A DNA stretch of 64,000 nt. Source: Eledone cirrhosa. Its lineage: Eukaryota. The first letter of the stretch is position 1, and each line of letters opens with the position of its first letter. Shown piece by piece: positions 18,101-60,024 of this stretch. The notes under the pieces are model-generated. The model was given only the letters and a program-made list of their open reading frames with translations, did no database searches and was not told where the DNA came from. Location of the stretch: assembly GCA_964016885.1 (NCBI GenBank), contig OZ024762.1, positions 11,904,001-11,968,000 on the forward strand, written 5' to 3'. A program made the position numbers and the translations under genes.

Positions 18101-19734
18101 TCTGAAAATCTTAAAATTAACAAAGATTTTAAAAATGAAAATGGAAGATTTTCAACTGGAGTAAGATCTTTAGACCGACCCAAGCAGCCATATTTGAAAA
18201 GTTACAAGCAAAAAGAAAATGGAGCTGCAAGATCGGTGTCAGAATGGATGCCATTGCAAGATTTGGACGAATCTGATAATTCTGATGCAGAAAGTTCCGT
18301 GAAAAATGTCCAGCGGAAGTATACGACTGGATTTAAATCTGGTCTTATTCCCAAAAATATAAAGTATTTAAATAACACAAAAGAGTTTTATGACACAAAC
18401 AGCCCTAAATCAGAAGACACAATCCAAAAGAATTCCTTCGGTCGAAAGCAGGAACAAAGCTGCTTCGTTACATTAAATTCGAATCAATCTAAAAATCAGA
18501 AGAAAATGTCTTCAGCTGATCTTTCTGGAACCAACCTGAAAACAGAGAATAATGATTGGGATAAATCTAATAGAATGAAAGAAGATCCAAAATGTTATAA
18601 CAATGGAAAGAATGGTGGTTATTTGAGACAGAAATCTGGAGAAATGGCAGGACGATGTCATTCGGAAGGCAGCAGGTATGATGGAGAGAAAGAGATGGAA
18701 TCAGAGATTTACCAAAAGGAAGCAGATATGGAAAGAGAAAGGCAAAATCAAGTGGAAACAGAAATTGAATTCTTAAAGAAACGATCGAATCAAAAACAGG
18801 CAAAAGGTTCTTTGAGGAATAAATTAACAAAACTAACTAAACAGTCATTATCTGCCATATATGGTTCGGAAGAGAAACGAAGGAACTCTTCGAATAAGGA
18901 GTCAAAAGATGTTGAATATAAAGAAGATATTACCAAACACAACAAGAATTGCAGGGAGAGTGTGAAGACTAATTCCAATTGCAGGGAGAGTGTGAAGAAT
19001 AACCCTAATTGCAGGGAAGGTGCGAAGAATAACCCCAAGAATGAAGAGAACTTAAACAGAACAAACTTTGAAGAGAAATTAACTTTGTCAAAAGGTAAAG
19101 AACAGGATGTTAGCCACCACATCATCAATGACTCTACAATTGCTAGCACAGATACCCTCACAAATGATATTCTTCTGAAACCGAAGATTAACGAGTTCAA
19201 CGCAAACATATATTTCCCAAATTCGTTAGCACCAAATTATGTCCCAAACCCATTCATGGGAATGATGCCTCCAAATTATTTTGATACTTCCTACGTCAAT
19301 GAATATCTTAAATTGGTCGGAATCGGTCAACCGTTTCTTCCAATGAACCTGACTGGGTACCACAACATTCCTGGTTACTTAGGAAACACATTCAACATGG
19401 CGCCACAGACAAGTGATATATACACAGGAACAAACTTTATGAATCCTCTGCCGTTTTTACCATCAGTCTTCAATAATTTCACTGATGCCACTGATGCCAG
19501 CAACTCAAAGTCTAAAGATGTAAAGAACCCTGTCTACACAAGCGACAGTGATGACGATGCTGATTCTTTGTACCAATCTCCAGGAACCTACACAGACCAA
19601 ACAAGCAATTGGAGCTCAGATAATATCAAAAGTATACAAACGGAAGAATTAGAAAATTCAGACAGTACCCAGTCCTCCGAAATTTATATTTTTCAAGAAG
19701 ATAAAGAACTGGATGAACGAGACAGAGATTTCGA
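15128..19734 (+). CDS. Main coding exon of an uncharacterised ~1550-aa S/N/Q/K-rich protein (myristoylation-like MGQNLS, RRRKKRQAPPPPP, polyproline, WH2-like segments)
   Basis: Uninterrupted, largely non-repetitive 1536-codon ORF. Acceptor tttatttgtttcAG ends at 15106, 21 nt before the ATG. The ORF's stop overlaps a GTGAGT donor at 19735-19740. Confidence 0.9.
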
Positions 19735-19820
19735 GTGAGTAAAATTAAACTTTTTTTCTTTCCATATTGAGTTTTTTTTATTATTATATTAATCTATTTT
19801 TTTTTATTTTATTCCAACAG

Positions 19821-32111: not shown

Positions 32112-32246
32112 TCACGACTTCTGAACTAAATGGTTCGGAGCATCAGCAAACATGTATTTCAACTTAAACGCCTCCGCCAACAACTCACCAATTTGTTCAT
32201 TCTGCCAATGGTGAGTGGGCAGGTTCTGTAGAAACATCAATATACA
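32112..32246 (-). CDS. TBC1D22: TBC1D22 last coding exon, CILMFLQNLPTHHW...MFADAPNHLVQKS*
   Basis: (CT)n-attgcAG acceptor; 44 codons, then TGA (plus-strand tca at 32112-32114). Confidence 0.95.
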   Translation of the reverse strand, partial: CILMFLQNLPTHHWQNEQIGELLAEAFKLKYMFADAPNHLVQKS

Positions 32247-32699: not shown

Positions 32700-35600
32700 T
32701 AAACCAAATGTGTGTGTGTGTGTGGAACAAACACAGGCAGACAGACACATAAACAGCATCCAGGTGATAAAATAAATTATAAGTACACACCTGAAAGTCT
32801 TTTTCTCGTTGAATATCACTGGAAAACCGCGTAAGAAACGCAGCACAAAGGTAAAGGTGGAAATCTGCAAAACCATTTATTTCTGCCTGGAAATATATTT
32901 TCAAAAACAGAAATTAATTCTAATAAAATATAATAATAATAATAATAATAATAATGAAATTATTGTGTATAGTGCTCAGGTGCACTAAAATATATTACAT
33001 GCCTGGGTGAAGAAATACAGAGTTATACACAGAGGCAGTTGCAAGGTTTTAACCCTTTAGTTACCGACCCGGCCAAAACCAGCTCTGGTTCTATGAAATA
33101 AAGTCACCCATTTTAAAGGTTTCCAATTTCAATTAAAATCTTCCAACATAATTTTATATAAGAACCCTACATTAAGTTACTATCTTAATAATTAATAATT
33201 TTAGTAAAGAACCTCGAGTGGATCTCAAATCAGTGAATCTTACAACTTGGTTGTTGAAGGACAAAGATGAGTGGAGGGATGCTTTGCTGGAAAGGACCTA
33301 TCCAGCCCATGCAAGCATGGAAGAAGGGGCATAAAACAGTGATGATGATGACAATGATGTTGATATGATTGGCTACAAGAATGGATTACATCGTGGGTAA
33401 ATATGATGAGAATTGTCCAGGGATATTGTCCAGAAATATTGCCCAGGGATGTTGTCCAGAGATATTGTCCAGAAGTATTGTCCAGAGATATTGCCTAGAG
33501 GTATTGTCCAGAGATATTGTCCAGAGGTATTATCAACAGATATTGTCCAGAGGTATTGTCCAGAGGTATTGACCAGAGGTATTGTCCAGCGGTATTGTCC
33601 AGAAGTATTTCCAGAGGTATTATCAACAGATATTACCCAGAGGTATTGCCCAGAGGTATTGTCCAGAAAGGTTCTGCTATCTTACCTGATAGGTGTCCCA
33701 CAAACGTATAGTACAGCGCAAAGGAATTTCTCTCATCAGCAGGTTGTTCATCCATCGGAAGGCAAATTGGAGAAATTCTACATTATGTTTTTCTAAATGT
33801 TTATATAATGGAACTGAAAGACAAAGTAATGTTTTTACTGTCAGTAGTAATAATAATGGTTTCTTCTATAGGCACAAGGCCAGTAATTTGGGGGAGGGGG
33901 AAGTCGATTAAATCAACCCGTAAGGATGAAAGGCAAAGCTAACCTCGGCGGGATTTGAACTCAGAATGGCAAGGGACGTAACTTTATGCTATGAAGCATG
34001 GTGTCCGACGCTCTACCGATTCTACCACTCTGCCAGTAGCAATAATAATAATTGTTTCTATTTTAGGCACAAGGCCAGCAATTACCCAGTGCATTACTGG
34101 TACTTTATTTTATCGACCCCGTAAGGATGAAAGGCAAAGTCAAGCTCGGCGGGATTTGAACTCAGATCGTAAAGGGACGTAACTATGCTGGAAAGCATGG
34201 CGTCCGACCCTCTACCGATACTGCCACAGTAGCAATAATAATAATAATGGTCTGATTGGCACCCCCACACCCCACCCCTCCCACCCCAGCCTCAAAGTTT
34301 GCCCACCCTCCACCCTTCACACCTCACGCTCAAAACTTACTCACACACCACCCCACCCCACCTAAAAACAGTCCCACACACCACCACCCCTCAAAACATC
34401 CCCACATCCCACCCCACCAGCCCCACTCTACTTACCATCTATTCGTTTCACTAACTCTTTCAAAGCGTTCACCTTCATCTGTATGCCAGGTTGAGCAAAG
34501 GTATAGTTATCCTGTATACCATCCAGTAACCTAGTGGTGCACCAAAAGCTGTCGGCCTCGATTATATTTAATGTGTCTGCCGATAATTTACTTAAGTCAC
34601 AGTTCTCCACTTCGACATCTGAACAGAAATAAATAAAGAATGGACAGAATGCATTAAAATCCCTATAGTGGTAGTGTTGGTGCCATGATAAAATACACCC
34701 AGTACACTCTGTAAAGTGGTAGTGTTGGTGGTGCCATGATAAAATACACCCAGTACACTCTGTAAAGTGGTAGTGTTGGTGCCATGATAAAATACACTCA
34801 GTACACTCTGTAATGTGGTAGTGTTGGTGGCATGATAAAATACACCCAGTACACTCTGTAAAGTGGTAGTGTTGGTGGTGCCATGATAAAATACACTCAG
34901 TACACTCTGTAATATGGTAGTGTTGGTGCCATGATAAAATACACCCAGTACACTCTGTAAAGTGGTAGTGTTGGTGCCATGATAAAATACACCCAGTACA
35001 CTCTGTAATATGGTAGTGTTGGTTCCATGATAAAATACACCCAGTACACTCTGTAAAGTGGTAGTGTTGGTGCCATGATAAAATACACTCAGTACACTCT
35101 GTAAAGTGATAGTGTTGGTGCCATGATAAAATACACTCAGTATACTCTAAAGTGATATTGCTGATGTCACGATATAATACAAAACAAGAAGTGTACCTGT
35201 AATTCAAAGGAACAGCCTTGTCAAACACTGTGGCATGCTGAATCTCCATGTGAACAACATTAAAGGTGTCTATGGAATGCTCAGCCACTTACACATTAAT
35301 TCCCTGAGCAGGCTGTTCAGTTAATCAAACAACTGGAACACACTCCTCTTTGTAATTGGTGGAGATCCAAATTATTCCATCCCCGCAGAAGTTACTGTCC
35401 CCCAACATCAGTGAAGATATAATCAATAATACATACCATTACTAATATACTCGGAGAGATAGACCACAAAAAATGGGGTTACAAGGTCGTTTATTCCTTG
35501 GACATAGCCACTGGCTGGATGGCGGATGGCCCATATATACAAGATTCTTTCAAATATCTGAAACAAAGAAACAAAATACAAATATAAATATATATGTTGT

Positions 35601-38600
35601 ATGTATATATATATCTATTTAAGGCTGTATACAGCTATGGTGCGACCACACTTAGAATTTGCATTTGCATTTGCATCACCAGTCTGGAACCCCTATCTTG
35701 CTCAGAACATTGACCGCCTGGAAACTGTTCAGAGACGTGCAACCAAGCGAATACCCTCCATCAGGCATCTACCATACTCTGAGCGCCTTGCTTCCCTGGG
35801 CATGGATTCATTGAAGCTCCGACGCCTGGCAACTGACTTGGTAAACACCCACAAAATTGTTAACCATGTTGCCAACAACCCTGAGTACCTTTTTGATTTC
35901 CATGTGTCTAACACACGTGGACATGCCCACAAAGTAAGAAAACAGCACAGTTCCCATGACTTTCGGAAACATTTTTTCACGCTCAGAGTTGCTGAAGCAT
36001 GGAACAAACTACCTGCATCAGTTGTTAGCTGTCGAGACACTGCATCCTTTAAGGCCTCCATGCTTCCCGAGATCCACCAACACTACAGCTAACACATACA
36101 AACATGTACTTCCCTGGCATTTGTGTATTATTCTATGTACTATATTGACGAGTTGTAGTGCACCTGAGCACTTTACACAATAATTTCATTATTATATATA
36201 TATATATATCGACAGTCGATTGACTTTCGTCAAATCAAACCAAAGAAACAATGCTTCCATTGGTCTTTCCAATTGCTAATACTATCTATCAGTCGCAACT
36301 CCAGGTAGAAGGAGCAACGTGAAATAAAGTGTCTTGCTCAAGGACATAACGCATCGCCCGGTCCAGGAATCGAACTCACAACCTCACGATTGCAAATCTA
36401 ATTATCTAACCAGTCAGCCACGCACCTTCACATTATATATATATATATATATATATAGAGATATGTCCCAAGGCTCTGATACCATCAACACTATAAACAC
36501 AGAGCTGGCATATCTAAGAACTGACTAACTGCCTGTTGAGGTCATAGCCATTCAATGGCTATCATCAAAATATATATAGCAGTAAATAAAGGATTATGAG
36601 TTCATGCAATTGACTTATGTTTCATCACTATATATATATATTATATTTAAAGGTTAAACAAGGTTCAATGAATAAATAAAAGAATGAGTTTTACAATTGT
36701 CATATCTAATTCACTACCATGACTGAATCTTAAACATCTACTATGTCAGGGTATGTCATGCATCATCTTATTTTATCTGATGAGGACGTACTGTTGAAGT
36801 TAGCTCAGTACCTCTGAAATATGTATAATAAAATATACTTGATCACACGAATGTCTATTTTTGTTAATATTTTGAATTAATATATATATATATAAGGAAA
36901 ATAAATTGAAAATGCAACTGGAGTCTTTTTTAAAATATTTATTTCTTTACTTTACCGGTTTCCATCTCGGTTTTACTTTGGATAATCATAAGAACTGTGA
37001 AACCGGTAAAGTAAATAAATAAATATTCTTAAAAAGACTCCAGTTGCATTTTCAATTTATTTTCCTTATAGTTTTACCTGTGTGGGACATTTTAAAAAAA
37101 TGTTACTTTCTTATTTATATATATACATATATATATATATATATTATATTATATGTTCATACAGGGAACAAAGGCTCTACCAAAGGTTTCAAAGCCCAAA
37201 TTTGACCATATCTCCAGAAAATAAGAGGTATCAAAATAGTGACCTCTCTTCAGGCTGCTAATATGAGTTTATTATCAGTACATATATATAAACCTGGATG
37301 GAATCAGTTTGAAACTGGTTAGACCATTACTCAATAGAGTACTCAATACTTGGAGTAGTAGAGTCTGGCTATATTATAAAGAGTCAGGACTCGACGGCTG
37401 AGATCTTGTTTCAACAGCTAGTTCCAAACCCAACCCAAACCAAGGATTAAAATGCTTAGCAACAGGGTAGACACCCAAACAAGGATGCTGTAAACCATCA
37501 AACCATGCAGTTGTTGAAAAGAAACAAAAAAAAACAAAAAAAAAATCCATGCACCCCCCACCCCCACATCAGACTTTGAACAAAATAATGTCTGAAATTT
37601 TAACAAGATATAACTCTTAGTTTCGCACTAATTCTATTCCAATCCATTTTACATCTTTCCATTCCATTCCATTCCAGTTGAACCAAAAGCCATCAGAAAA
37701 TAATTTTTTTTAAATTTATTAGAATTTTTAAATTCTATTTTTAGTTTTATTTTTGGTGGGGGTTTGTGGTGAAACCAAGCAGTGGATTAAGTCTACCACC
37801 CAAGTTTATCATCCAGGTGGACCACCCAAGTCTACCACCCAAGTGGACCACAGTGGGAAGAACCACAACAAATACCAAAATATATTTTCTCCAATGCTCT
37901 AACAATATCACCAATCTTCTGCCCTGGGCTGGGACTTTCTTTTATTGACCCACCAAAAGTGACAAAAGGTTGCAGTTGACCTCGGTGGGATTTCAATAGT
38001 ATATATAGAATAATGTAAATGTTAAAGTGCTAATGTACCTGAAAAAGGAAAAGTTGGTTTCAGTGGAATTTGAAACGAGAAGGCAACGAGCCAGATCATA
38101 TAACGCAGCAAAGCTTCCCATCTGACACTTGAACAATTCCACAAACCCACCACAACCCAGTACTTTACTGTTGAGTCATTTAATTCAACCCTGAAAAGGA
38201 CGAAAATCAAAGTTGATCTCGGCAGGATTTGAACTCAGAGCTCAGTAAACTGGAACAAATAACTGAGGCATCTGTTCCGATACCAATCAGGATCCTGGAA
38301 CAAATGACAAGATTCCAGACCTCATTTGCTTACCGAGTGAGGTAGAACTCGTCAGATTGGACCAAGGAATCAATGTTTCCATTGGTCATTTTAATTGCTG
38401 ATACTATCTACTGGTCACAACTCCGATGCCAATTTGCAGTCTAAATAAAAGTACATGTAAAATTGGTTGACAGTTTAAAATAATTCGAGTTGATAAAATA
38501 GATTGAAGACAAGGTGAATAATGTTGGCTAAAACCCCCAAAATTAGCAGCATTGAAACAGGAAGTAGTTTAGGAAGCGAAGTGAATAGAAAGCACATCAA

Positions 38601-41600
38601 GTTAGATTTTTTTTAAATAATCATTTCTTACATAGGCACATCATCATCATTTAATAATTTAGCATTTGAACCGGCTATATCCAGTCAGAATTCCCTCAAC
38701 TCTTTCTGTTCAAACCAGCCATAACTGGCCACTCATATTTATGTTAAGGTATTGTTCTCAAAATAAATAAAATCAAAATCTCATAGATTCAATATTATGT
38801 GAGATAAAGCCTTTACTGTGAAAATACAATAGTATATATAGAGTAATGTAAAGCCTTTACTGTGAAAATACAATAGTATATATAGAGTAATGTAAAGCCT
38901 TTACTGTGAAAATACAATAGTATATATAGAGTAATGTAAAGCCTTTACTGTGAAAATACAATAGTATATATAGAGTAATGTAAAGCCTTTACTGTGAAAA
39001 TATAATAGTATATATAGAGTAATGTGAATGCTAAAGGGTTTAATGTTCAATTTTCCATGTTAGCAAGTGTTGGACAGGTTGTCACTGACTAAGTAAGTAC
39101 TTAATATGAGTTACTGACCTCTCAAATGGGCCTGAGACAGGATTGATGCTTATATACATTCCAGTACTCAGTTCTCAAATTTCATTGAAGAGTACAAACA
39201 ATTCTATAGCCCTCTACCCCAGTATATGACTGGCTACACCAGTGGCACATCTACAGTGGCACCCCGAGACTGGCTGTACCAGTGGCACATGTATTGTGGT
39301 ACCCCAAAAACTGGCTGCACCAGTGGCACCCCAAGACTGACTGCACCAATTGCGTGATTATGATGATGGTGATGATGGCGATGATGCGGCCCAACAGATT
39401 GAGCTGAAAAATCAATGTTTTGTGTAATTTCAATTTTGGTCAGTGTCTTCTTCCAATAAAGATTCCTATTTACACTAGTGACTGTCAATAAAAAAAAAAA
39501 TTTAAAAATGGAAGAAACATTTTTTATTTATTTCCTGGTGTTAAAATTTTCATCACCCTGTCACCAACCTTGTCACTGACACCAACCTTGTCACAACATA
39601 GTTTTACTGTAACTAAATATAAAGTGATGTTAACAGTTTCCATGATTTTTGAATTTTTAAATTGACCCATCCATGAACTAATTGCTTTAGTTTCAATTGC
39701 ACAAGTCTCAGATCAAGTCACTTGCCAGACATGTACAACTGTAGCTAAAATGACTCTTCCATGATATAGTTACTTTAGTTTCAACACAGTCTCAGATCAA
39801 GTCACTTGCCAGACATGTACAACTGTAGCTAAAATGACTCTTCCATGATATAGTTACTTTAGTTTCAACAGAGTCTCAGATCAAGTCACTTGCCAGACAT
39901 GTACAACTGTAGCTAAAATGACTCTTCCATGATATAGTTACTTTAGTTTCAACACAGTCTCAGATCAAGTCATTTGCCAGACATGTACAATTGCCAAATA
40001 AAAGAGGGAGAGAAAGGGGGTAGATAAATAAAGGGACTGGTGAAGATCTTCATCAATTTTCAGAGTTGCAGAGCTGGACATGATGGGTGGAAAGGAAGGA
40101 TGAATTGAAAGGGTGAATTTAACAATCCATCATGAAATGAAACAATTGTTTAAAACAACAAAACAATGACAACAACAATGAGAGAAAGAGAGAAAGGGGT
40201 GTTGATGGCTGCAAAGTGGACTAACAGATACTCACTTCCTGCACGGCATTCTGCTGGAACAAGTGTGCAACAGAAGTCATTCGAGGGATATCTTTAAGAA
40301 TCTGCAAGAACAGGGAGCAGTTGTTTTTGAAGAACACAGCAGCAATCTATGTACTAACCCTCAAAAGAAGAGCTACAGTGCTAGAGTCAGTGAGGAAGAG
40401 GAAAGTCAACATGTATCAGACAAACCAGATTAGAACAAAACTATACTTTCAAGTTGTTGTTGTTGTTGTTAGGTGGAAGAATGCAGCATTTTTTAAGGTT
40501 TTCTTACTATTTTTATATTTTTCATCTAAGGATCATTTAAAAAAATATTTTGCATTCATTTCGCAATTTGACACTAAAAGGGGTTAAAATTGAAAGAAAA
40601 AGAAAAGAGCCAATTGTGGTGTTGGACCAAGGAAACAATGCTCCCCTTGGTCTTCCAATTGACGATACTATCTGCTGGTTACAACTCCTAGCAGAAGAAA
40701 TGAGGGGATTGTGGTATTGGACCAAGGAAACAATGCTCCCCTTGGTCTTCCAATTGACGATACTATCTGCTGGTTACAACTCCTAGCAGAAGAAATGAGG
40801 GGATTGTGGTATTGGACCAAGGAAACAATGCAACCTTTGGTCTTTCCATTGACGATACTATCTTCATGTCATAAATTCTGGCAGAAGAAAGGAGAGGATT
40901 AGCAGATTGGACCAAGGAAACAATGTTCCCATTGATCTTTCTATTGACAATACTATCTGCTGGTGACAATTGCTGGTAGAAGGAGGTGGGATTTGAACTC
41001 AGAACACGCACAGAGAGATCAGATACTGCAAAGCATTCGTCTTGTCTGATTCTTTAACAGTTCTGCTGATCTATCCCCCCCTTTTGGGTGGGTACGTTAT
41101 CAACCTCAATAAAAGTATGAAAGGAAAAGTTGACCTCAACCGGTTTTGCAAAATAAAAAAAAAAAAGATGGGGGTGGGGTGGTAATTCATTTTTAATCAT
41201 AAATTGATCCAAAGTTTAGACAAAAGCTATATCTGGCTTCTCAAAAATGTTAACTTTCCTCTTGAATTCTGAAAATAAAAACATATACATACGTATATAT
41301 ACATTATTTATATGTACATATATAGATATATATAGATTAGTTATAAAGTGAGAACAACAAAGATTAATAAAACCCAACAAAAACACCAAAATACACCAAA
41401 CATTGTACAGCCACATTAATAAATAGCATATGAACTAGCAAGGGAAGGGGTCCTTAAGACATTCCAAGGTGCAGCATGCTAGAAAGGAACCAAAGGACAC
41501 AGCGCAAAAGATATTATCGAGCAGATATAGTTTGGCCAGTCGAGCAACAGAATGCAGCAATTTGTTTCTTTTACTTCTACCAAGTTCTACCAAATTCCAC

Positions 41601-42183
41601 CTGAGCAGCATTCATGCACAACTGAGATTTCCAATGACTAAAAACTATAAGAAAAGTTGTCTTTTTGTTTGTTACTATTAGTCATGGAGGGAGGGACAGT
41701 GCCCTGTTCACAGCCTCCAAAACAGGTGGGAGAGAAGGAGGCAAGCATCCTTAAACTGAAGACATGAGCAGAAGGCCTGCAACAAAAGAGTGGATTCTAG
41801 TAAATACACACGAGAGCCGGGTGTTGGAGTTAAACTCATCATTTGAGTAAGTCTAACACAAGAGGACGACAAAGCAGGATTGGGAAATGTGTGTGTAGTG
41901 TGTGTGTGTGTGTTTGTGTTTGTAAATGTGTGTGTACATATGTAGTGTGTGATATAAGTAACAAGTTCCAATTTTAAGTATTTAAGCTACAAACGTCCTG
42001 GAAATTCAAACTTGTTTTGTCAAGATTTAGACAATATACACCACCACCACCATCACCATCACCATCATTTGCTGGCATGGGTTAGACAGGACTTTTTGAA
42101 GTAATGTTGTACTATAACTCTTTTAGTTGTTTCTTATGACACACAAGGATACAATGTAACTGCTCTAAATCAGACACACAAGC

Positions 42184-42248
<65 letters not shown>

Positions 42249-45200
42249 GTCGGGTTGCAGGTAAATCTTGCCTTGGGCAGATCGACGGAGAAACATGTGT
42301 AATATGTTAATAAATCTGATATGATGCAACATTGATTCCTCGTTCTTTATAATAAATGTGTGTGTGTGTCTGTGTGTGCATGCGTGTGTGTGTGTGTGTG
42401 TGTGTGTGCGTGCGTGAGAGTCCCAGGTTCAAACAGAGGTAACCACAGAGAATATACAACAAAGTTAATATAGAAATGGTTTCTACAGGACTAGAACTGC
42501 TTCATTCAATGCCAGTTGGCTTTCCTGATGATTTCCTTCGAATGAAACAGTTCCAGTCGTGTAGAAGCCATTTCTATATTGAATGTGTTATATATATATA
42601 ATGCTTAAAGGGCTCGAGTTTGACCACCAAGCAGTAGATTCTATAATAATATCTACACTACTTTCCTTAAGTATGAAATACTAAGTTGTATAGTGGTCTT
42701 ACAGGCCTTAACTAGTAACATCTCATCTATTTACATACATCAGGGTTTCACAAACTTTTTCAAATGTGGAACCCTTCTTGGTTCAGAAACTTTAGGGGGA
42801 ACCCCAAAGTCTAATACTGTTATATGGTCATAATATAAATATACTCCTTTACCTTTTTTTTTTTATGGAACCCCAGACATTCATTTGCAGAACCCTTGGA
42901 TTCCACAGATCCCACTTTGGGAATCACTGACCTACATAAAGACTATAGAGTGGAGCTAAAGTTCACTAGGGTACAGGCCTTCATACTGAAAACATCTCGG
43001 TCTGTTCCCTTGTCTTTGGATTGCTTTGCATTAACAATGTAACTTTATTAGATAAGATGTAGTCTGATGATGTAGCATTACTGGTTGTGAGATTGAAGCA
43101 TCATGTAGTCATGAACGCCAATGAAATATGTATTACGGGTTTATGAATAAAGGAATTTTGAACATCTAAATTGGACTTTCGCAAATAACCTTATTTTATC
43201 TATATAAACGGTTGTGCTTCTCTGCAGAATTGGGTAGATCTATGGTCGAAGGATATTTTTCCAAAGTGCTGCATTTTGTTGGAACTGGGCAACATTTCAG
43301 GCGTTGGGCCATACTTACTTCCTGAACTACCTTCAATTGGAACAGGGGTACTAAAGGGTTCATTCGGGGGATGTCTATGTGGATCTGAAATCAGGAAACA
43401 TCGAGAAGAAAGAAAGGAAAAAAAAAAAAAGAAAAAGGAAAATAAAATAAACACACAAACAAAACAATGAACCTTAATTCCAAGGATGCAGCATATAGGT
43501 AATGAAAGGTGTAAAATACACAGGTGCAAAATATACAGGTGATGTAATACTATGAATAATTATTGGAGCATAAAATAGAATGACTGTTAACTTATAACCT
43601 TAGCTATAGTATACATGCAATGATGGTGATGATGATGATGATGATGAAGAAGATGGCGATGATTACAAGGATGATGATGAAGATGATGGTGATAATGGTT
43701 TCTGATTTAGGCACCAGGCTAGCAAATTTGGGCGGGGGTTGGTGAAAGAGTTGATTAAATCAACCCCAGTACATGACTGGTACTTTATTTTATTAAGCCC
43801 CAAAAGGATCAAAGGCAATAATTGTGTCTATTTTAGGCACAAGGCCAACAATTTATGTGGGGAGAGGGGAAGTCAATTAGACTGACCCCAGCACATTACT
43901 GGTACTTTATTTTATCGACCCTGGAAGGACGAAAGGCAAAGCTGACCCCAGGAGGATTTAAACTGAGAATGTAGTTACTCCAGGTAGAGCTGCTACTTCT
44001 CCAAAGTGAGAGATCACAGCTCTGATGCTATGGACATGTGGTTAGAATGTCTCAGGAAAGAATCACTGGACAGATTTCACAGGCAAAACCAACTGGCAGG
44101 AGACCCAGGGGGTAGACCTTGAGCTTCTGCTAATCTACCATCAACAACAGCAACAACAAACAATAACGAGCATTGTTAACGAACATGGTCAGAAATTTGA
44201 GAAGGAGATGCAACACTGGTAGTGGTGGTGGTGGTGGTGGTGGTGGTGGTGTGGTCATAGTGATGATGATGGGGGTGGTGGTGGTGGCAGTGGTGGTGGT
44301 GGTGTGGTCATAGTGATGATGATGGTGGTGGTGGCAGTGGTGGTGGTATGGTCATGGTGGTGGTGGTGGTGGTGTGGTCATAGTGATGATGATGATGGTG
44401 GTGGTGGCAGTGGTGGTGTGGTCATAGTGATGATGATGATGGTGGTGGTGGCAGTGGTGGTGGTATGGTCATGGTGGTGGTGGTGTGGTCATAGTGATGA
44501 TGATGATGGTGGTGGTGGCAGTGGTGCTGGTATGGTCATGGTGGTGGTGGTGGTGGTGGTGGTGGTGTGGTCATAGTGATGATGATGATGGTGGTGGTGG
44601 TGGCAGTGGTGGTGGTATGGTCATGGTGGTGGTGGTGTGGTCATAGTGATGATGATGATGGTGGTGGTGGCAGTGGTGCTGGTATGGTCATGGTGGTGGT
44701 GGTGGTGGTGGTGGTGTGGTCATAGTGATGATGATGATGGTGGTGGTGGCAGTGGTGGTGGTATGGTCATGGTGGTGGTGGTGGTGGTGTGGTCATAGTG
44801 ATGATGATGATGATGATGATGGTGGTGGCAGTGGTGGTGGTATGGTCATGGTGATGGGGGTAACAGTGATGATGGCCATGCTGATCGCAGTGATAGTCAT
44901 GATGGTGATGAGGGTCATGATGATGATGATAACAAAGATAAAAACTATATAAATAACAATAAGTGACAAAAAAAAACAAAACAAAACAATAAAAAGACCC
45001 AGCCAAAAAGAAATAGACAACAACAACAACAATTTGACAAGCGGGGTTCTCTCGGGTCCCAAATAATAGGGTGGGTGCTGGAATAAGTGGGGTTCTCTCG
45101 GGTCCTAAATAATAGGGTGGGTGCTGGAATAAGTGGGGATTAGGGTAAAAAATCACATTTTTCCAGGTTGTCTCTGTTGAATATTTTTAAAAAACCAGAA

Positions 45201-48200
45201 TTAGTCGTTTAGTTTACATATTGAGACCCCCCAAGCCATCATATTTATTTTATAACATACTGAGACCTTCCAACCTATTTATTTTATAACATATGGGATT
45301 TCTAGTAATGTATTTTTTGTCATGTATAATATAATAGAATAGAATTAAAATTTAGCTTCAAGCAGAGCTGTATACAGATATGTATTGGAATTTCGTATTT
45401 CTAAAGAAATACGGTATGTTTATAAATAAACATTTAGAAAGCCATAGCTATGCAAAAACACTGCCAGCTATCGCCCTCTGGTGGTGTCCAGCAGAAGCAA
45501 GGGGGACAATCGTCGATGCCATTCGAACTGAACTGGTTCTCGTCAGGATGATACCCACTCTCTTACAACTGCTGGACTTTGAAAATAGGTGAGAATATAT
45601 AGTTTTCTCATCTGTGTTAATGAGGTGATTAATCTCATTTGCATATGAAGCTGCATAAATTATTGAGCGGGTGGGGAGGGGGGGGGCATTATTTGAGACC
45701 CGACAGTAATTGAACGTGACAAATACAAAAATAATTATTTATACAATTTCCAAATAAAAGTGACATTCATAAAGTATAGTAGTTTCTTAACCCTTTAAAC
45801 ACTAATCTGCATGGTTGCTTGATCTGCTAGAAATAGGGTGTGATTTGAGGGACCCTTGGCTCCTGACTTAATCCTTTAGATACTACTCCATATGGCTGAA
45901 TGGCCTGCTACAAATAGGGTGTCATTTGAGGGACACTTGTCTCCTGACTTAACCCTTTAAATACCAACCTGCTCAAAACTGCCACCATTCTATGACAAAC
46001 CTCTTGTCTTAAGAGGCCCCAACACTCATGTCAGTTGTCATGTCCTTAGCATAACAGAAGAGCTTTCCCAACTGTGTTTGGCAGGTTATCTATGGCTTGA
46101 TACCCTTCCTATCAGCCACACTAGGGGGGTCATCACATCTATATCACTGTGGAACAGTCCTCTGACTGTGTTTGGCAGGTTATCTATGGCTTGATACCCT
46201 TCCTATCAGCCACACTAGGGAGGTCATCACATCTATATCACTGTGGAACAGTCCTCTGACTGTGTTTGGCAGGTTATCTATGGCTTGATACCCTTCCTAT
46301 CACCAACCACTTTACACAAGTGTACTGAGTGATTGTTTATTGTATAGATCACTAACACTAAAGAGGTTGTCATGGCTACAGCACTGCTGAAGAATCCCTC
46401 GGGCTCTTTGGCAAATTTTCTACAGCTTGATGCCACTCCTATCACCAACAACTTTACAGAGTGTACAGGGTGCATTTATCATATAAATCACCAACACTAG
46501 GAAAGTTGTCATGTCTACAGCACTGCTAAAGAGTCCTCCCGACCTTTTATATTTATCTAAAAACATTCCATCGTAATTATATGTAAGAACCTTTGTCAAG
46601 TTATGTTCCAAACACCAACTTAATAATTGTTTCTACTTTTGACACAAGGCCAGCAATTACCCCAGTGCATTACTGGTACTTTATTTTATCGACCCCCGTA
46701 AGGATGACAGGCAAAGTTAACCTCGGCAGGATTTGAACACAGAACACAAAGGGCCATAACTCTGTGCTGCAAAGCATGGTGTCTGATGTTCTACCGATTC
46801 TGCCTAATAATGAGGAAGTTACTTATATTACTAAATCCCATCAAATTTTCATTATTTAAAAAAATCTATTTGAAAATCATATGCAGCGTCTCCCATTAGA
46901 AATATAACAAAAGGATTAAAAAAAAAAAAAAGGGTCAGTGTTTGCTTTTCTTTCAGTTTTTTAGAGGGGTTTGGCATGTGTGGATTGTTTAAATCCCAAA
47001 CTGACCTGTCGAAACGTATCTTGATGTTCAACATGGTGCCGTGTACCATAATAATGTTCAACAAAACTAAAATATTCTTTCCGTTTCCTTTCCAAAGTTG
47101 GTTGCCTCCGATCATAACTAGCAGGAAGATAACCCTGGAATAAGACAAGAAAACCTTGAAAATATAATTGTGTCAGGAGTTAATTCAAATGTTTATAGTA
47201 TCTTTACTAAGAGACAGATTGTTGTGAAAATGTGCAGTATTAGAGTATAAAGAGTTTAATACATAATTGTTTCTACGTTCGGCACAAGGCCAGCAATTAC
47301 CCAGTGCATTACTGGTACTTTATTTTATCGACCCCGTAAGGATGAAAGGCAAAGTCAACCTCGGCGGGATTTGAACTCAGATCGTAAAGGGACGTAACTA
47401 TGCTGGAAAGCATGGCGTCCGGCCCTCTACCGATACTGCCAATTCACCGCCAAGAGTTTAATACATAATGGGATACAGTCACAGGGCTATTTTGTACTTT
47501 TCTAGAATGTCTTGCTAATATGGTTTCATATGGTTTGTTAATTCAATTATTTAGGGTATCTTTACTAAGAGACAGATTGTTGTGAAAATTTGCTGTATTA
47601 AAGTAAAGACTTTCATTTTTAATGTAATGCAATCATAGTTCTGTTTTGTACTTTTCTAGAATGTCTTGTTAATTTAAAGGTTTGCAGTATCTTTGCTAGT
47701 GAACAGATTGTGAAAATTGGTAGTGTTATAGTAAAAACTTCAATTTTTAATGTGATGCAATCATAGTGCTGTTTTGTACTTTTGTAAAATGTCTCGTTAA
47801 TGTGATATCATGCTATGCAAGACAATAATAATAATGAAAATTATTGTGTACAGTGCTCAGGTGCACTACAACTAAACAAATATGCATGTAAAGTACATAA
47901 AATAATGTACAAATGTTAGGAAAGTGAACAGTGTATGAGTCATGATATATACACACATACATGTGTGTATATTATATATATATATATATATAATTTGTGT
48001 ACAGTGCTCAGGTGCACTACAACTCATCAAAGGTGTATGTATAGTACATAAAATAATGCACAAATGTCAGGAAAATGAACAGTGTTCGAGTCATGATATA
48101 CAGACAGACACACACATGCGTGCGTATTTACGGAGGGGGGATATCAGGTGTAGTGTTGGCGAACTTCGGGAAGCATGGAGGTTTTAAAGGATGCAGTGTC

Positions 48201-48537
48201 CCGATAGCTAACAACTGATGCAGGTAGATTGCTCCATGTTTCAGCAACTCTGAATGTGAGCTGTACAGTTTTCTGATTTTGTAAGCATGTCTACGGGTGT
48301 TAGACATATGAAATTCAAAAAGGTGCTCAGGGTTGTTGTTGGAAAGATGGTTAACAAAAGATAAAGCTTTGTATAATCATTGGTAACAGGGAAACAGATA
48401 TTAAATGGTGATGATGATGTAAGAGAAACGATGCTTGAATTATGTAACTTACAGATAAAATTTTCCAGGCTGTGGGTCTCACTGACTTTGGTATTCCAGA
48501 CCAACTGAGTTTACGTAATTCCTCTGAAGATCAGAAA

Positions 48538-48587: not shown

Positions 48588-51500
48588 TAGATGGTGCCTC
48601 AGCATGGCCATAGTTACATGACTGAAACAAGTAAAAGAATAAAATAATACATAAAAAAAATACTTAGTCTACTCCATAAGGTGGTTGTGTTGCTGATATG
48701 AGAGAAAAGACACCCTGTCTACCCTATGAGGTGGTTGTGCTGGTGACAAACCAAAAAGCACCCAGTCCACCCTGTAATGGGGTTGTGCTGGTGACAAACC
48801 AAAAAGCACCCAGTCAACACTGTAACGTGGTTAGCTTTAGGAAGGGTATCCAGCTGTAGAAACCAAGCCAAAATGCAGGTCCTTTTGAGCAAGACATGGT
48901 CTCTTGACCTGACTTGTCTCATAACATGATAACCCATCTAACCCCTGCAAGCACGGAAAAATGGCTGATGACGATATACAGCAATAATAATTGTTTCTAC
49001 TTTTGGCACAAGGCCAGCAATTATCCCAATTATTTGAGACGAGACCCGAGAGTAAGTTTTAAAAGATCACTTAACCCATTAGCTTTTAAACCGGCCATAT
49101 CTGGCCAGAATTCTCTCACCTATTTAATCTGGCCATAACTGGCCACTCATACTGGTATTAAGGTATTGTTCTCAAAAGAAATAATATCAAAATCTCAAGG
49201 ATTTGATATTATGTGAGATAATTATGTGAGATAAAGTGTTTACTGTGAAAATACAATAGTATATATAGAGTATTGTAAATGTTATGCGAGATATTATGTG
49301 AGGTAAAGCCTTTACTGTGAAAATACAATAGTATATATAGAGTATTGTAAATGTTATGTGAGATATTATGTGAGGTAAAGCCTTTACTGTGAAAATACAA
49401 TAGTATATATAGAGTATTGTAAATGTTATGCGAGATATTATGTGAGGTAAAGCCTTTACTGGGAAAATACAATAGTATATATAGAGTAATGTAAATGTTA
49501 TGTGAGATATTATGTGAGGTAAAGCCTTTACTGTGAAAATACAATAGTATATATAGAGTATTGTAAATGTTATGTGAGATATTATGTGAGGTAAAGTCTT
49601 TACTGGGAAAATACAATAGTATATATAGAGTATTGTAAATGTTATGTGAGATATTATGTGAGGTAAAGCCTTTACTGTGAAAATACAATAGTATATATAG
49701 AGTATTGTAAATGTTATGTGAGATATTATGTGAGGTAAAGCCTTTACTGTGAAAATACAATAGTATATATAGAGTATTGTAAATGTTATGAGAGATATTA
49801 TGTGAGGTAAAGCCTTTACTGTGAAAATACAATAGTATATATAGAGTATTGTAAATGTTATGTGAGATATTATGTGAGGTAAAGCCTTTACTGGGAAAAT
49901 ACAATAGTATATATAGAGTAATGTAAATGTTATGTGAGATATTATGTGAGGTAAAGCCTTTACTGTGAAAATACAATAGTATATATAGAGTATTGTAAAT
50001 GTTATGTGAGATATTATGTGAGGTAAAGCCTTAACTGTGAAAATACAATAGTATATATAGAGTATTGTAAATGTTATGTGAGATATTATGTGAGGTAAAG
50101 CCTTTACTGGGAAAATACAATAGTATATATAGAGTATTGTAAATGTTATGTGAGATATTATGTGAGGTAAAGCCTTTACTGTGAAAATACAATAGTATAT
50201 ATAGAGTAATGTAAATGCTAAAGGGTTAAAATAAATAGCTTTGTACCACAGGACCAGAGGTAGTTTCGAGCAGTTTGATATCAAAAGGAAATAAATGAGG
50301 AATTCTCCTTACCTAAGTCTGCATTTGATGTTGTTAATAAAGTCTGAAATTTTTCTAATTTAGCAGATTCTCGATCTGGTACAGGTTGCTGACCAAACCG
50401 TAAAGGTGTAATTCTAGGAGGCTGCCAGTGGCTATTCAAACGAACCCCTACACCAGGTCCAGCACCTAAAGAAATGGCTGAGGGAACTGCAGTCATGTGA
50501 CAGCCTGCAATTTAAAAAAAATTGAAATAATAATAATAATAATAATAATTGTTTCTACATTTGGCACAAGGCCAGCAATTATCCCAGTGTATTATTGGGG
50601 CTTTATTTTATCGACCCTGTAAGGACGAAAGGCAAAATTTAACCTCGGCGGGATTTGAACTCAGACCACGAAAGGCCATAACTCTATGCTGCAAAGCATG
50701 GCGTCAGACCCTCTACTGATTCTGCCATTTCAATATATATAAATAAAAGTGTATAAGATAATCAAATGAAGAAAAAAGACGAAGAAAATATATTTCAGAA
50801 TAGAATTATTAGAGTTTACGCATTAGAATTACAAGTATCATATAAATTGATCCAAACAAGCTGAGATGTGCAGTTGATCCCTGCTTGTGGAGTTGACCCT
50901 TGCTTGTGGAGTTAATCCTTGCTTGTGGAGTTTGCCACTGCTTGTGGAGTTGATACAGCTGTAATTTTCATATATTGTTTTCAATTAAACTATTAACGAA
51001 TGCGATTGGTATTTTTGAGCTGATTTTATGGTTATCTGAAAGATGGATGTCAGATGTTTGGGCAGGGGCACAATTTCACTGCTAACCATAGGCACTATCT
51101 TCCCTAGTTACACCTCTGTAATAAAGTATAAGACAAACTGGCTTTGTTGTTAATCTAACAACAAAGCCAATCTAACCATAAATCTTTACAGCAAAGTTAA
51201 ACTAACAATAAAAATCCCTGGAAAAGCACCACTAACCTGATGAGGATTTAACTGGTGACCCCTGCGAGCTCCCATTAAGGGCCTGGAACTGTTTACTGTG
51301 ATTATCAAGCACAGCCCGTGCTGTTGACTGGACATCCTTTAAGGACATTTGAACATTGGCCATCAATATTAGATCATCATCCCCATCATCCCATGCATCT
51401 GATGTCTCATTTTCAAAGTCCCGGAAGGAGTCCTTCGTCTTTGTCTTCAGTTTGTCATCTTTCTTTGGTGTGCCCGGATTACTGTAACAGAAACACGGAA

Positions 51501-52689: not shown

Positions 52690-53190
52690 TCCATATAATT
52701 ACATAATAAACAACACAATATAATTATTCCATCACCAAAGGTTTCAGGAAACTAAGCGATCCTTACAGAAACGTCCAGCTCGTTCATCAGATGAAATAGG
52801 GTCACAGAGATTGACAGGAGGGAAGAAGGGAGGAAGGTAGCCTTAAGCCAGAGACCTGGCTTGAATCATCATCATTGTTTAACATCCATCTTCCATGCTA
52901 GCATGGGTTGGACAGGTTTGTCCCACTTGAGGCAAGATTGGTTGGGTGACCGAGTCTCGCTCGTACAGGACTGTATCTGGCAGGTTTTCTACGGCTGGAC
53001 GCCCTTCCTAACACCGACCACATTGCAACAATGTAATGGACACTACTAAAAGTACTCAATAACCAGATGGTGGTGTTAAACCAGACCACAGATTAGTTCT
53101 ACTTGTGTCAATAAGTCACCTACTTTTTATACATACCTCAGAGGTCGTTCAATACGAGGTGGATGTTGTGCGCCATAAACAGGCTTGATA
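32112..53190 (-). CDS. TBC1D22: TBC1 domain family member 22 (Gyp1-like Rab GTPase-activating protein), multi-exon, 5'-incomplete, ~473 aa within the window
   Basis: The spliced translation contains family motifs VYGAQHPP, FENETSDAWD, LRKLSWSGIP, GYLPA, IHIDIPR, RHPASGYVQGINDLVTPF, EADSFWC, LLDGIQDNYTFAQPGIQ, FAFRWMNNLLMRE, RLWDTY and LQNLPT. All introns are GT-AG with matching phases. Confidence 0.96.
32349..32535 (-). mobile_element. SINE, full length, in the last TBC1D22 intron
   Basis: Near-identical to the copies at 34050-34226 and 47265-47450. Confidence 0.9.
32791..32886 (-). CDS. TBC1D22: TBC1D22 exon, AEINGFADFHLYLCAAFL...EKDFQ (96 nt, phase 0/0)
   Basis: atttccAG|...|GTGTGT. Confidence 0.95.
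33410..33670. repeat. 13-bp minisatellite (tattgtccagagg), ~20 copies
   Basis: Direct inspection; it ends ~15 nt from the donor at 33685. Confidence 0.9.
33686..33813 (-). CDS. TBC1D22: TBC1D22 exon, PLYKHLE...FAFRWMNNLLMRE...RLWDTYQ (128 nt, phase 1/0)
   Basis: gtctttcAG|...|GTAAGA. Confidence 0.96.
33857..34226 (-). mobile_element. Two tandem SINE copies
   Basis: Match to the family unit. Confidence 0.85.
34436..34618 (-). CDS. TBC1D22: TBC1D22 exon, VEVENCD...EADSFWC...LVKRID (183 nt, phase 1/1)
   Basis: ctgttcAG|...|GTAAGT. Confidence 0.96.
34665..35150. repeat. 48-51-bp minisatellite, ~10 copies
   Basis: gccatgataaaatacacccagtacactctgtaaagtggtagtgttggt. Confidence 0.9.
35437..35557 (-). 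CDS. TBC1D22: TBC1D22 glutamine-finger exon, IFERILYIWAIRHPASGYVQGINDLVTPFFVVYLSEYISN (121 nt, phase 0/1)
   Basis: tttgtttcAG|...|GTATGT; YxQ motif. Confidence 0.96.
35613..36195 (+). mobile_element. CR1/L2-group LINE 3' fragment
   Basis: LYTAMVRPHLEF...VWNPY...LETVQRRATK...TRGH...FFTLRVAEAWNKLP. Its tail gagttgtagtgcacctgagcact also occurs at ~9540, 32955, 47830-48360 and 59760. Confidence 0.9.
36770..36834 (+). ncRNA. Minimal type-I hammerhead ribozyme motif (Penelope-like), antisense to a TBC1D22 intron
   Basis: Stem I ATTTTAT/ATAAAAT (7/7); CTGATGA at 36777-36783; stem II GGACGTACTG/CAGTACCTCT (9/10 including a G-U pair); GAAA; stem III ATA-TG-TAT with an ATA triplet. Confidence 0.7.
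36893..37110. mobile_element. Fold-back element, same family as 21016-21290
   Basis: ~70-bp inverted arms (36893-36962 / 36999-37068) containing TTTACCGGTTTC / GAAACCGGTAAA; flanked by (TA)n. Confidence 0.65.
38805..39025. repeat. 44-bp minisatellite, 5 copies, inside a piggyBac-like MITE
   Basis: aaagcctttactgtgaaaatacaatagtatatatagagtaatgt. Confidence 0.9.
39700..39995. repeat. 84-bp minisatellite, ~3.5 copies
   Basis: gtctcagatcaagtcacttgccagacatgtac at 39705, 39789, 39873 and 39957. Confidence 0.9.
40236..40301 (-). CDS. TBC1D22: TBC1D22 arginine-finger exon, copy B: ILKDIPRMTSVAHLFQQNAVQE (66 nt, phase 0/0), putative mutually exclusive alternative
   Basis: ccctgttcttgcAG|...|GTGAGT; same length and phase as copy A; I..DIPRM, LFQ and VQE are retained; no stops. 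Confidence 0.85.
40620..40985. repeat. 95-bp unit, 4 copies
   Basis: ggaccaagg at 40624, 40719, 40814 and 40909. Confidence 0.9.
42467..42580. repeat. Hairpin element containing CTGATGA...GAAAC; a half copy lies at 3552-3610
   Basis: aatatagaaatggtttctacaggactagaactg / cagttccagtcgtgtagaagccatttctatatt. Confidence 0.7.
42741..42929. mobile_element. hAT-like MITE
   Basis: TIRs CAGGGTTTCACAAAC / CTTTGGGAATCACTG; 8-bp flanks acatacat / acctacat (7/8). Confidence 0.7.
43319..43384 (-). CDS. TBC1D22: TBC1D22 arginine-finger exon, copy A: IHIDIPRMNPLVPLFQLKVVQE (66 nt, phase 0/0)
   Basis: gatttcAG|...|GTAAGT; canonical IHIDIPR motif. Confidence 0.95.
45049..45706. mobile_element. Longer member of the 8594-8774 MITE family
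   Basis: CTCTCGGGTCCCAAATAAT ... ATTATTTGAGACCCGACAG|TA. Confidence 0.6.
46070..46300. repeat. 94-bp tandem, ~2.5 copies
   Basis: actgtgtttggcaggttatc at 46071, 46165 and 46259. Confidence 0.85.
47006..47134 (-). CDS. TBC1D22: TBC1D22 exon, GYLPASYDRR...HQDTFRQ (129 nt, phase 0/0)
   Basis: cttattccAG|...|GTCAGT; 43 codons matching the family sequence. Confidence 0.95.
47265..47450 (-). mobile_element. SINE, full length (other copies at ~46625-46805, 50547-50728, 53775-53975, 54501-54678, 43695-43972, 5840-5995, 9435-9535)
   Basis: Match to the family unit. Confidence 0.85.
47990..48360 (-). mobile_element. CR1/L2-group LINE 3' fragment, same family as 35613-36195
   Basis: Reverse-complement similarity to 35865-36180. 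Confidence 0.8.
48453..48523 (-). CDS. TBC1D22: TBC1D22 exon, ELRKLSWSGIPKSVRPTAWKILS (71 nt, phase 1/0)
   Basis: gatcttcAG|...|GTAAGT; first TBC motif GIP..R...W. Confidence 0.95.
49075..50225. mobile_element. Same piggyBac-like MITE with an internal 72-bp unit expanded ~14 times
   Basis: TTAA|CCCATTAG ... CTAAAGGG|TTAA ends; tandem array at ~49215-50220. Confidence 0.85.
50313..50504 (-). CDS. TBC1D22: TBC1D22 exon, CHMTAVP...RESAKLEKFQTLLTTSNADL (192 nt, phase 1/1)
   Basis: ttgcAG|...|GTAAGG; the KLEKF..LL segment precedes the TBC domain. Confidence 0.9.
51237..51481 (-). CDS. TBC1D22: TBC1D22 exon, NPGTPKK...FENETSDAWDDGDDD...KSSS (245 nt, phase 2/1)
   Basis: ctgttacAG|...|GTTAGT; conserved SDAWD acidic motif. 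Confidence 0.92.
51602..52095 (-). mobile_element. Non-autonomous Helitron
   Basis: Minus strand starts A|TCTAAACTATAATAAAG and ends with the hairpin aaaaccacccgaagggtggtttt, then CTAG|T. It sits in an A|T target with no TSD. Confidence 0.75.
52725..52798 (-). ncRNA. Degenerate hammerhead motif (GAAACCTTTGGTN family)
   Basis: Minus strand reads TATTTCAT-CTGATGA...GAAACCTTTGGTG-ATGGAATA. Stem I is intact, stem II is poor, and the GTG triplet is non-cleavable. Confidence 0.5.
53137..53190 (-). CDS. TBC1D22: TBC1D22 exon, IKPVYGAQHPPRIERPL (54 nt, phase 2/2)
   Basis: ctattgtttAG|...|GTATGT; conserved N-terminal VYGAQHPP motif; not present in the ORF track. Confidence 0.92.
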
Positions 53191-58424: not shown

Positions 58425-58962
58425 ATAGTTCAAGTATCTTGGAGCCGTGTTCACAAGTGATGGAAGGCAGGAGGCTGAATTAAATGCAAGAATTGCAGGA
58501 GCTGGTGCAGTAATGTGCCAGCTTCGGCATTCAATAATCAGAAGAAATGGGGTAGGTGTAAAAGCCAAACTTGCTTCCTTCAATTCAGTATTCATGCCAA
58601 CCCTTACGTATGGTCATGAATCTTGGGTGATGAGTGAAAGAATATGATCGCGAATACAAGCGGCTCAAATAGGGTTTCTCAGAAGGGACTTTGGAGTAAC
58701 ATTACTCAATAAAGTATGTAGCTCGGAGATCAGAGAGTCACTCCAGGTAGAGCCACTACTTCTACGAATTGAGAGATCACAGCTCCGATACTATGGACAT
58801 GTGGTTAGAATGTCTCAGGAAAGAAGCGCTGGGCAGATTTGTAGCTCGGAGATCAGAGAGTCACTCCAGGTAGAGCCACTACTTCTACGAATTGAGAGAT
58901 CACAGTTCCGATACTATGGACATGTGGTTAAAATGTCTCAGGAAAGAAGCGCTGGGCAGATT
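58425..58962 (+). mobile_element. RTE-type LINE reverse-transcriptase C-terminal fragment, with a stop and a 123-bp duplication
   Basis: FKYLG.VFTSDG...PTLTYGHESW...IERSQLRYYGHVVRM; related pieces at 9320-9428 and 43975-44130. Confidence 0.85.
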
Positions 58963-60024
58963 TTATTCCAGAACGGATCCTATCCAACCATCTTGCTCAT
59001 GGTCAACCCCGACCTCCAGGTCTCCTGCCAGTTGGCTCTGGCAACAAAATCTACCCAACAACACACACACACACACTTCTTCACCTTATTCCAGAGAGGG
59101 TCCTATCCAACCATCTTGCTCGCGGTCTACCCCGACCTCTGGGTCTCCAACTGGTGGGCTTTGCCCACAATATGTCCTGTGATACACCCACACTTCTTCA
59201 CCCCACTTATTCTAGAGAGGGTTCTATCAGAAACAACCGTCTCCAAATAACCCAGCTGGAACCCCAAGTGGGACCAACAAAGCTCAAAGATGTTATCCAA
59301 CCATCTTACTCGTGGTCTACCTCAGGGTCTCCTGCCGGTTGGCTCTGGCCACAAAATCTACCCAACTATTCAATAATAAAAAATATACTTAGCACAAAAT
59401 CAGTTTTACATTTGAACAAACATTGAATGAAAAATATTTTGGGTAGGTGGGTAAATGAAAGGGGAGGGGGTAGGAAAGGAGATAAAAAGTCAAAAGGGGG
59501 GGAAATAGGGAGGGGACAAACTCCACCCATGGTAGGGACAGTGTATTCTAGCTGCAGCACCCTACGGTGGATAAAATGCCAAAATGACATATATACACAA
59601 CAGCTAGATACACACGCATGCATGCATTTACTCACACATGCATACATACACACACACATACAAACATACACATGCACATACAAGAATGCATGCATACACA
59701 GACATATACCATGCATGCACACACATATACATTATTCTATGTACTATACATGCACCTTTGATGAGTTGTAGTGCACCTGAGCACTGTACACAATAATTTC
59801 ATTATTATTATTATATTATTATATATACACACACACAAACATAACTATATCTTAACAGTTGTGTATGTGTGTGTGGGGGGGGGGGGTCCTATTACATGCT
59901 GTATCAACCCTTCCACCTCCCAGGGGCTCCATCTCCTCATATTTGGACAGTACATCTCAGCTGTGCCACACGATCAAGATGACAATAGCATTGCCTCAGC
60001 AAACAGCAACCATTGAGGGCCGAG

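Follow-up and report, generated by a model that had tools for sequence, protein, structure and literature searches.

An old, conserved pair of arginine-finger exons, likely spliced mostly one at a time, in the TBC1D22 gene of Eledone cirrhosa and other molluscs

We describe two homologous exons of the gene for TBC1D22, a GTPase-activating protein (GAP) of the RabGAP class, which turns off Rab proteins of the trafficking machinery, in a stretch of 64,000 nucleotides from the genome of the octopus Eledone cirrhosa (assembly GCA_964016885.1, contig OZ024762.1, positions 11,904,001 to 11,968,000), which is called the window below and from whose first letter all positions are counted. Each exon encodes the segment around the catalytic arginine, or arginine finger. 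An earlier note on the window had proposed that these exons, A and B, are duplicated and mutually exclusive; it reported two intact 66-nt phase-0 exons with good splice sites, and both lie where it had placed them, with the translations that it gave. The pair and its surroundings, in the order of transcription, are the following.

47006..47134, minus strand, 129 nt: upstream constitutive exon, ending in ...DTFRQ, donor GTCAGT
43385..47005, minus strand, 3621 nt: intron upstream of A
43319..43384, minus strand, 66 nt, phase 0: finger exon A, of the ancestral Gyp1/TBC1D22B type, arginine at exon position 7
40302..43318, minus strand, 3017 nt: intron between A and B, GT-AG, with one TGCATG at 41618
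40236..40301, minus strand, 66 nt, phase 0: finger exon B, of the derived lysine type (ILKDIPRMT), arginine at exon position 7
35558..40235, minus strand, 4678 nt: intron downstream of B, repeat-rich, with four TGCATG
35437..35557, minus strand, 121 nt: downstream constitutive exon, with the YxQ glutamine finger (GYVQG)

Exon A is bordered by a CAG acceptor and the donor GTAAGTAT, exon B by a CAG acceptor and the donor GTGAGTAT; on the acceptor side A has an 86-nt AG-free zone with a long pyrimidine tract, and B an AG-free zone of 43 nt. Alignment gives 12 identical residues out of 22, the number claimed in the earlier note, and 45 identical bases out of 66. The codon differs at six of the 12 shared residues: to the five synonymous pairs already pointed out (GAC/GAT, CCC/CCT, CTG/TTG, CAA/CAG and GTT/GTG) we add ATC/ATT. 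By the Nei-Gojobori method the proportion of synonymous differences (pS) is 0.72, with synonymous sites saturated, against 0.20 for nonsynonymous differences (pN), and the 30-60 nt flanking A are merely 25-33% alike to those flanking B. Since the flanks have lost their likeness while pS stands so far above pN, we conclude that the duplication is old and that both copies have been constrained as protein. The purifying selection on both copies suggested in the earlier note is borne out by these values and by the conservation in relatives described below.

Between 47005 and 35558 there are 20 open stretches of the form AG-66 nt-GT, the best of which, A and B apart, matches A at 4 of 22 residues. 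When a profile of 84 finger exons from relatives was run over the six frames of the window, A and B alone scored (E ~3e-15; next 0.87), which excludes a third copy of the finger exon within the window. A search of the species' own genome returned one match for exon B and one for the downstream exon. Three sequencing runs, which may be the source of the assembly, behave as genomic DNA, being unspliced through exon B and without differences from it, so that they carry no information on expression. All four splice combinations (A, B, both together, written A+B, and neither) are open through to the stop codon, so that nonsense-mediated decay cannot enforce a choice, as had been argued. The bases directly 3' of the B donor (40220-40235) may be conserved, on a by-eye impression, with a cuttlefish-like read-through open reading frame (ORF), P0241 (...LSVHF).

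With A and B counted, 12 coding exons of TBC1D22 were mapped on the minus strand, from 53190 down to 32112, a span of more than 21 kb; the first coding exon was looked for in the window and not found. Outside the segment listed above lie the following exons.

53137..53190, minus strand, 54 nt: TBC1D22 exon (IKPVYGAQHPP...)
51237..51481, minus strand, 245 nt: TBC1D22 exon
50313..50504, minus strand, 192 nt: TBC1D22 exon
48453..48523, minus strand, 71 nt: TBC1D22 exon
34436..34618, minus strand, 183 nt: TBC1D22 exon
33686..33813, minus strand, 128 nt: TBC1D22 exon
32791..32886, minus strand, 96 nt: TBC1D22 exon
32112..32246, minus strand: last coding exon of TBC1D22, ending at the stop codon

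The 54-nt exon with the VYGAQHPP motif (53137-53190) is missing in one of two chiton models (P0264 versus P0324), and the same cassette may explain why isoforms in Owenia and Aplysia differ in length by 18 residues. On the plus strand, a low-complexity, proline-rich open frame of 1537 codons (15125-19738) without a Pfam match probably represents a single large exon belonging to a neighbouring gene, and open frames at 35562-36092 and 58648-59250, also without a Pfam match, resemble retroelement remnants; the former, within the intron that follows B, is present in many copies to judge from contig depth. Inverted repeats within introns at 36891-37070 (72-nt arms, 96%) and 42452-42595 (56-nt arms, 86%) are probably small transposon remnants.

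The identification of the gene as TBC1D22 in the earlier note is supported by matches to orthologues and to solved structures. The exons in the window match named Octopus TBC1D22 proteins closely, though inexactly, at ~95% (best score 452 over 472 residues), and these orthologues contain the TBC domain PF00566 and have TBC1D22A/B and Gyp1p as their best solved relatives. A search of the Protein Data Bank with exon A leads to human TBC1D22B, yeast Gyp1p and human TBC1D22A; exon B alone gave no match among solved structures. The catalytic motifs of TBC domains are IxxDxxR and YxQ (PMC13090580). The arginine finger IxxDxxR that had been read in both exons holds down to its spacing: the arginine at exon position 7 and the glutamine of GYVQG are 35 residues apart in the A-only as in the B-only isoform, equal to the spacing given for R343 and Q378 of Gyp1p (PMC3674391) and for R274 and Q309 of human TBC1D22B (PMC12631847). 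From A to B, His-Ile becomes Leu-Lys before the aspartate, and Asn-Pro-Leu-Ile-Pro becomes Thr-Ser-Leu-Ala-His after the arginine; Lys3, which precedes the aspartate in B, matches TBC1D15 (IEKDVNR). A protein with a single finger, P0177, has IQKD (Gln-Lys before Asp) and an A-like remainder, and fragments of its clade run directly from the finger into the sequence of the next exon.

In an AlphaFold model of the B isoform of O. bimaculoides, a single prediction, the finger helix is kept (281-296; predicted local distance difference test, pLDDT, 90, 69 and 89 over 281-310). The B-only model keeps the TBC fold, with TBC1D22A, 22B and Gyp1p as its closest structures (Foldseek: 2qfz, E 4e-26; Gyp1-Rab33, 2g77, E 8e-21). 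In a model of the A+B form of O. sinensis, again one prediction, on 68 rows, residues 303-326 have a pLDDT below 50, and the extra piece, including the arginine of B, is predicted to loop out beside the active site directly after the arginine of A. The PF00566 scores of A and B isoforms lie within ~2.5 bits of each other in five mollusc pairs and in the Lingula pair, and Pfam scores give no indication that B is nearer than A to the pan-TBC consensus.

The spread of the pair was read from 111 named mollusc models in 50 taxa, taken from three homologue searches and three cluster listings, with two partial models (P0156, P0334) set aside and one cluster represented by 15 of its 18 members. Fifty-six of these models have B only (10 of them with an extra piece of 6-7 residues in front), 30 have A only, 20 have A+B and 5 have neither exon. 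By taxon, A is found in 30, both exons in 25 and B in 45, a count raised by a B-centred homologue search; the earlier note had named the absence or disruption of B in related species as grounds for refutation, and B is present in the models of these 45 of the 50 taxa. For 19 of the 50 taxa the annotation has distinct A-only and B-only isoforms, and in three species of Octopus, as in many further molluscs, isoforms of the two kinds have the same length; A+B models occur in 13 taxa and neither-exon models in 5. Cephalopods, snails and clams all have both exons among their gene models. The exon order is A, then B. In nine out of nine read-through ORFs B stands alone as an exon, preceded by an acceptor-like ..Q and followed by VSI or VSM. 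The pair predates octopus by far, and the earlier note judged its age and spread too low. The 6-7 residue insert, rich in Gly and Leu and placed before A or B in scallop, oyster and Lineus models (P0037, P0136, P0138, P0178, P0207, P0208, P0320), is probably a conserved microexon; a search of the octopus intron upstream of A for a microexon like that of bivalves and Lineus found none.

Octopus B shares 78% identity with 19 B exons from snails and clams, and octopus A the same 78% with 14 A exons; the upstream exon reaches 70%. Three named Octopus species have one and the same B peptide, which is conserved in three classes of molluscs. This conservation refutes the view that B is decaying after duplication or arose through misassembly, to which, with pS and pN as far apart as they are, we attach practically no probability. 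Residues that tell the two exons apart are fixed as well: all 45 B exons have Leu2, Lys3, Thr9, Ala12 and His13, and all 30 A exons have Ile3 and Pro10. One could suppose that A and B are functionally interchangeable, each kept as the sole included exon of some cell type, with their differences being tolerated drift. The near-equal Pfam scores of the isoforms would agree with this, as would P0177, whose lysine beside an A-like remainder speaks for tolerance of that residue; yet the five B positions, fixed in all 45 taxa, differ from those of A exons from Hydra to vertebrates, which disfavours drift, and we consider interchangeability improbable.

Judged from the sequences, A is the ancestral, Gyp1-type finger (IxIDIPR), because Hydra, arthropods, hemichordates, nematodes and vertebrates all have the A type. 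A alone was seen in Ridgeia, Lamellibrachia, horseshoe crabs and Ptychodera (among the members listed) and in Capitella and Paralvinella (single models), all of which are gene models rather than genomes. Lingula has A and Lys-type isoforms of equal length, the nemerteans Lineus and Tubulanus have a Lys-type exon of 19 residues in the same slot, and Owenia has one of 20 residues, which begins IEKDINR and sits before A in a double model. Scored against mollusc B and mollusc A, the second exon reaches 43 versus 27 in Lingula, 28 versus 15 and 24 versus 7 in the nemerteans, and an equivocal 17 versus 15 in Owenia. The scores nearer to mollusc B, the order in Tubulanus (A, then Lys-type, as in molluscs) and the short extra piece before the finger that Lineus has in common with bivalves favour one lophotrochozoan duplication, with Owenia uncertain.

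A second finger exon, of 21 residues, was also noticed in fish and ray TBC1D22A (P0279, P0281, P0288, P0300, P0308). Among 42 fish rows, 37 have the ancestral type, four have the 21-residue variant followed by the ancestral exon, and one has the variant alone. The crystallised human TBC1D22A carries the 21-residue variant in the finger slot, and human TBC1D22B the ancestral type. The variant keeps IHIDIPRM and scores nearer to mollusc A than to mollusc B (49 versus 30, Lates). Because it is A-like in its first eight residues and placed before the ancestral exon, the second exon of vertebrate TBC1D22A probably stems from an independent duplication. In a tree of the downstream domain all sequences form one orthologous family, with weak deep support.

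The evidence on splicing comes from gene models and transcript-contig proteins of relatives, rather than from the octopus of this window. The contig set consists of 36 full-length mollusc-like proteins known solely from contigs (Logan, ENA or JGI) 1.2-4.6 kb long, with fragments and three proteins common to NCBI left aside; these contigs must be spliced, since in the window the gene extends over more than 21 kb. Each of the 36 proteins has a single finger exon, B in 33 and A in 3. Cephalopod-like contigs yield both types, and the three A-type proteins are all cephalopod-like; among snail- and clam-like transcripts B outnumbers A. Our guess is that A may be neural, from its long pyrimidine tract and from the solely cephalopod-like origin of the A-type contigs. 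The earlier claim that one gene makes two isoforms differing at the finger agrees with the same-length A-only and B-only proteins annotated in relatives.

Strict mutual exclusivity, the stronger part of that proposal, could not be established. A+B appears among the numbered RefSeq isoforms, which are usually backed by reads, of O. sinensis (X1, X4), Gigantopelta, Magallana gigas, Crassostrea virginica, Pomacea and Tubulanus, and outside molluscs A+B models are found in Tubulanus, in Owenia and in four of the 42 fish rows. Frequent co-inclusion had been named as a finding that would speak against the proposal: co-inclusion does appear in gene models, those of 13 of the 50 taxa. Nor was a lock found. 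Decay of unproductive transcripts is excluded at the locus by the open frames, steric hindrance by the 3017-nt intron between A and B, and a U2/U12 mismatch by the donors, both of the GT U2 type; local folds, from single-sequence folding without a conservation test, gave no convincing competing RNA pairing (z -0.79 and 0.04). Two strong-looking pairings on the A side, of the region upstream of A with A (z -4.7) and with its downstream flank (z -3.6), out of 28 region pairs with 12 shuffles, were rejected because the fold of the whole region reached a z of merely -0.79. The 25 longest of 499 inverted repeats comprised AT runs and two local hairpins.

If the exons were nevertheless strictly exclusive, and the A+B and neither-exon models were artefacts of gene prediction, a functional switch would still be compatible with that. 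The 36 single-exon contig proteins point this way, automated GenBank annotation is the source of several A+B models, and the predicted structure of the A+B form suggests a disturbed active site; the RefSeq isoforms of five molluscs and Tubulanus, together with the lack of a lock (including the 43-nt AG-free zone of B, the donors, the long intron and the kept frame), argue against it, and we regard strict exclusivity as rather unlikely. We infer instead that splicing is controlled by factors, mostly either-or, and leaky.

On balance we lean towards a single gene with two old, conserved finger exons that are likely spliced mostly singly and that yield RabGAP isoforms likely differing in Rab preference or rate. 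The anatomy, the open frames, the conservation and the annotated A-only and B-only proteins form the established part of this account; a functional difference between the isoforms is inferred. Splicing factors would set the choice between A and B in a leaky rather than locked manner, so that a minority of transcripts would have A+B or neither exon. B would be the general form and A the restricted one, and the fixed changes around the finger would reshape the Rab-facing surface, with both isoforms predicted to keep the catalytic arginine. According to PMC12631847, RAB1B-GTP pulled down human TBC1D22B, and TBC1D22A negligibly; the finger of the former is A-like and that of the latter a variant, so that the paralogues differ in this segment, among others. 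Several observations weigh against this account. Human 22A and 22B differ at many positions outside the finger. A+B makes up 20 and neither-exon 5 of the 111 named mollusc models. The contig proteins are not independent (eight are near-identical and oyster-like, six belong to one cluster), and assemblers lose minor forms. Both full-length models of the chiton Liolophura are A-only. The second exons of nemerteans and Owenia, at 19-20 residues, are far more diverged, and that of Lineus loses 7 Pfam bits, which is also compatible with a weakened enzyme.

A weakened enzyme is the core of another possible account, to which we give a clearly smaller chance: the target Rab would be the same for the two isoforms, and as weaker or dead GAPs the forms with B, with A+B or with neither exon would set the share of it that remains active. 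The recurrence of A+B in 13 of 50 mollusc taxa, Tubulanus, Owenia and four of 42 fish rows, and of neither-exon models in 5 of 50 taxa, is in its favour, as are the low-confidence residues 303-326 of the A+B model, predicted to loop out beside the active site, and the 6-7 residue piece that scallop, oyster and Lineus models have directly ahead of the finger. There is also a precedent in NF1 exon 23a, 21 residues spliced into a GAP domain with weaker activity as the outcome (PMC7878752). B, however, predominates among the transcript contigs (33 of 36) and retains the isoleucine, the aspartate, the arginine, the 35-residue spacing and invariant residues of its own, and the A+B structure is one prediction on 68 rows.

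A bolder form of the preferred reading, in which the two isoforms differ in Rab preference or rate, is speculative and in our judgement doubtful. The finger exon would be a recurrent specificity cartridge, duplicated at least twice (in lophotrochozoans and in the TBC1D22A of jawed vertebrates), with the lophotrochozoan copy moving towards a TBC1D15-like IxKD; splicing would then switch the target Rab of a Golgi GAP by tissue, and the RAB1B difference between human 22A and 22B would be a leftover that maps to these 21-22 residues. How TBC GAPs select their Rab is poorly resolved. The pair amounts to a natural single-variable experiment across cephalopods, snails and clams, in which proteins are identical save for 10 residues around the catalytic arginine, and it offers a short segment for testing as a determinant of Rab specificity. 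It also supplies a hypothesis for why RAB1B binds human TBC1D22B, which is linked to breast cancer prognosis, and barely binds TBC1D22A, and it adds a trafficking enzyme to the cases of one exon duplicated more than once in animals.

Our search of the literature on TBC1D22 and splicing found no paper describing the exon pair, although subscription papers, further supplements and splicing databases may hold one. The supplement of a human tandem-exon catalogue (PMC8373072) lists no TBC gene, with the controls CACNA1C and RAB6A present; TBC1D22 is absent from the table of PMC4494069 (controls found, one file unsearched) and from the supplements of PMC9741552, PMC5740500, PMC7954323 and PMC4417111, the last four being a weak test because they lack a gene-table control or are near-empty. 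Already known are the class of such pairs and, as automated annotations, both isoforms: RefSeq and GenBank mollusc TBC1D22 models contain the identical exon pair (O. bimaculoides XP_014783420.1 with B, XP_014783421.1 with A) as unlabelled automated predictions.

The pair is a new member of the class of tandem duplicated exon substitutions. A and B are adjacent homologous exons that share one slot and frame, both are conserved, and each occurs alone in isoforms of relatives; as in the cases described in PMC8373072 and PMC9741552, two ancient homologous internal exons, each conserved, swap a short segment. Such exons have arisen repeatedly in separate animal lineages (PMC9741552). The pair is unusual in its catalytic residue and in its recurrence in vertebrate TBC1D22A; unlike the catalogued examples, the swap holds a catalytic residue of a RabGAP, and its exclusivity looks leaky. 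Within the orthologous family of human TBC1D22A (2QFZ), TBC1D22B (6D0S) and yeast Gyp1p (1FKM, 2G77), A matches the finger of 22B and Gyp1p, while human TBC1D22A has the variant IHIDIPRM finger, A-like rather than B-like, which in fish precedes the ancestral exon. The closest parallel to A+B is NF1 exon 23a, where ~21 residues spliced within a GAP domain alter GAP output (PMC7878752); that exon, however, is a single cassette insertion in a RasGAP fold, whereas in TBC1D22 the arginine finger is replaced by a homologous one. RAB6A and RAB6A' (supplement of PMC8373072) likewise belong to the Rab trafficking machinery and differ by the exchange of a homologous exon at an interaction surface, but there the swap sits in the GTPase, and in TBC1D22 it sits in the GAP.

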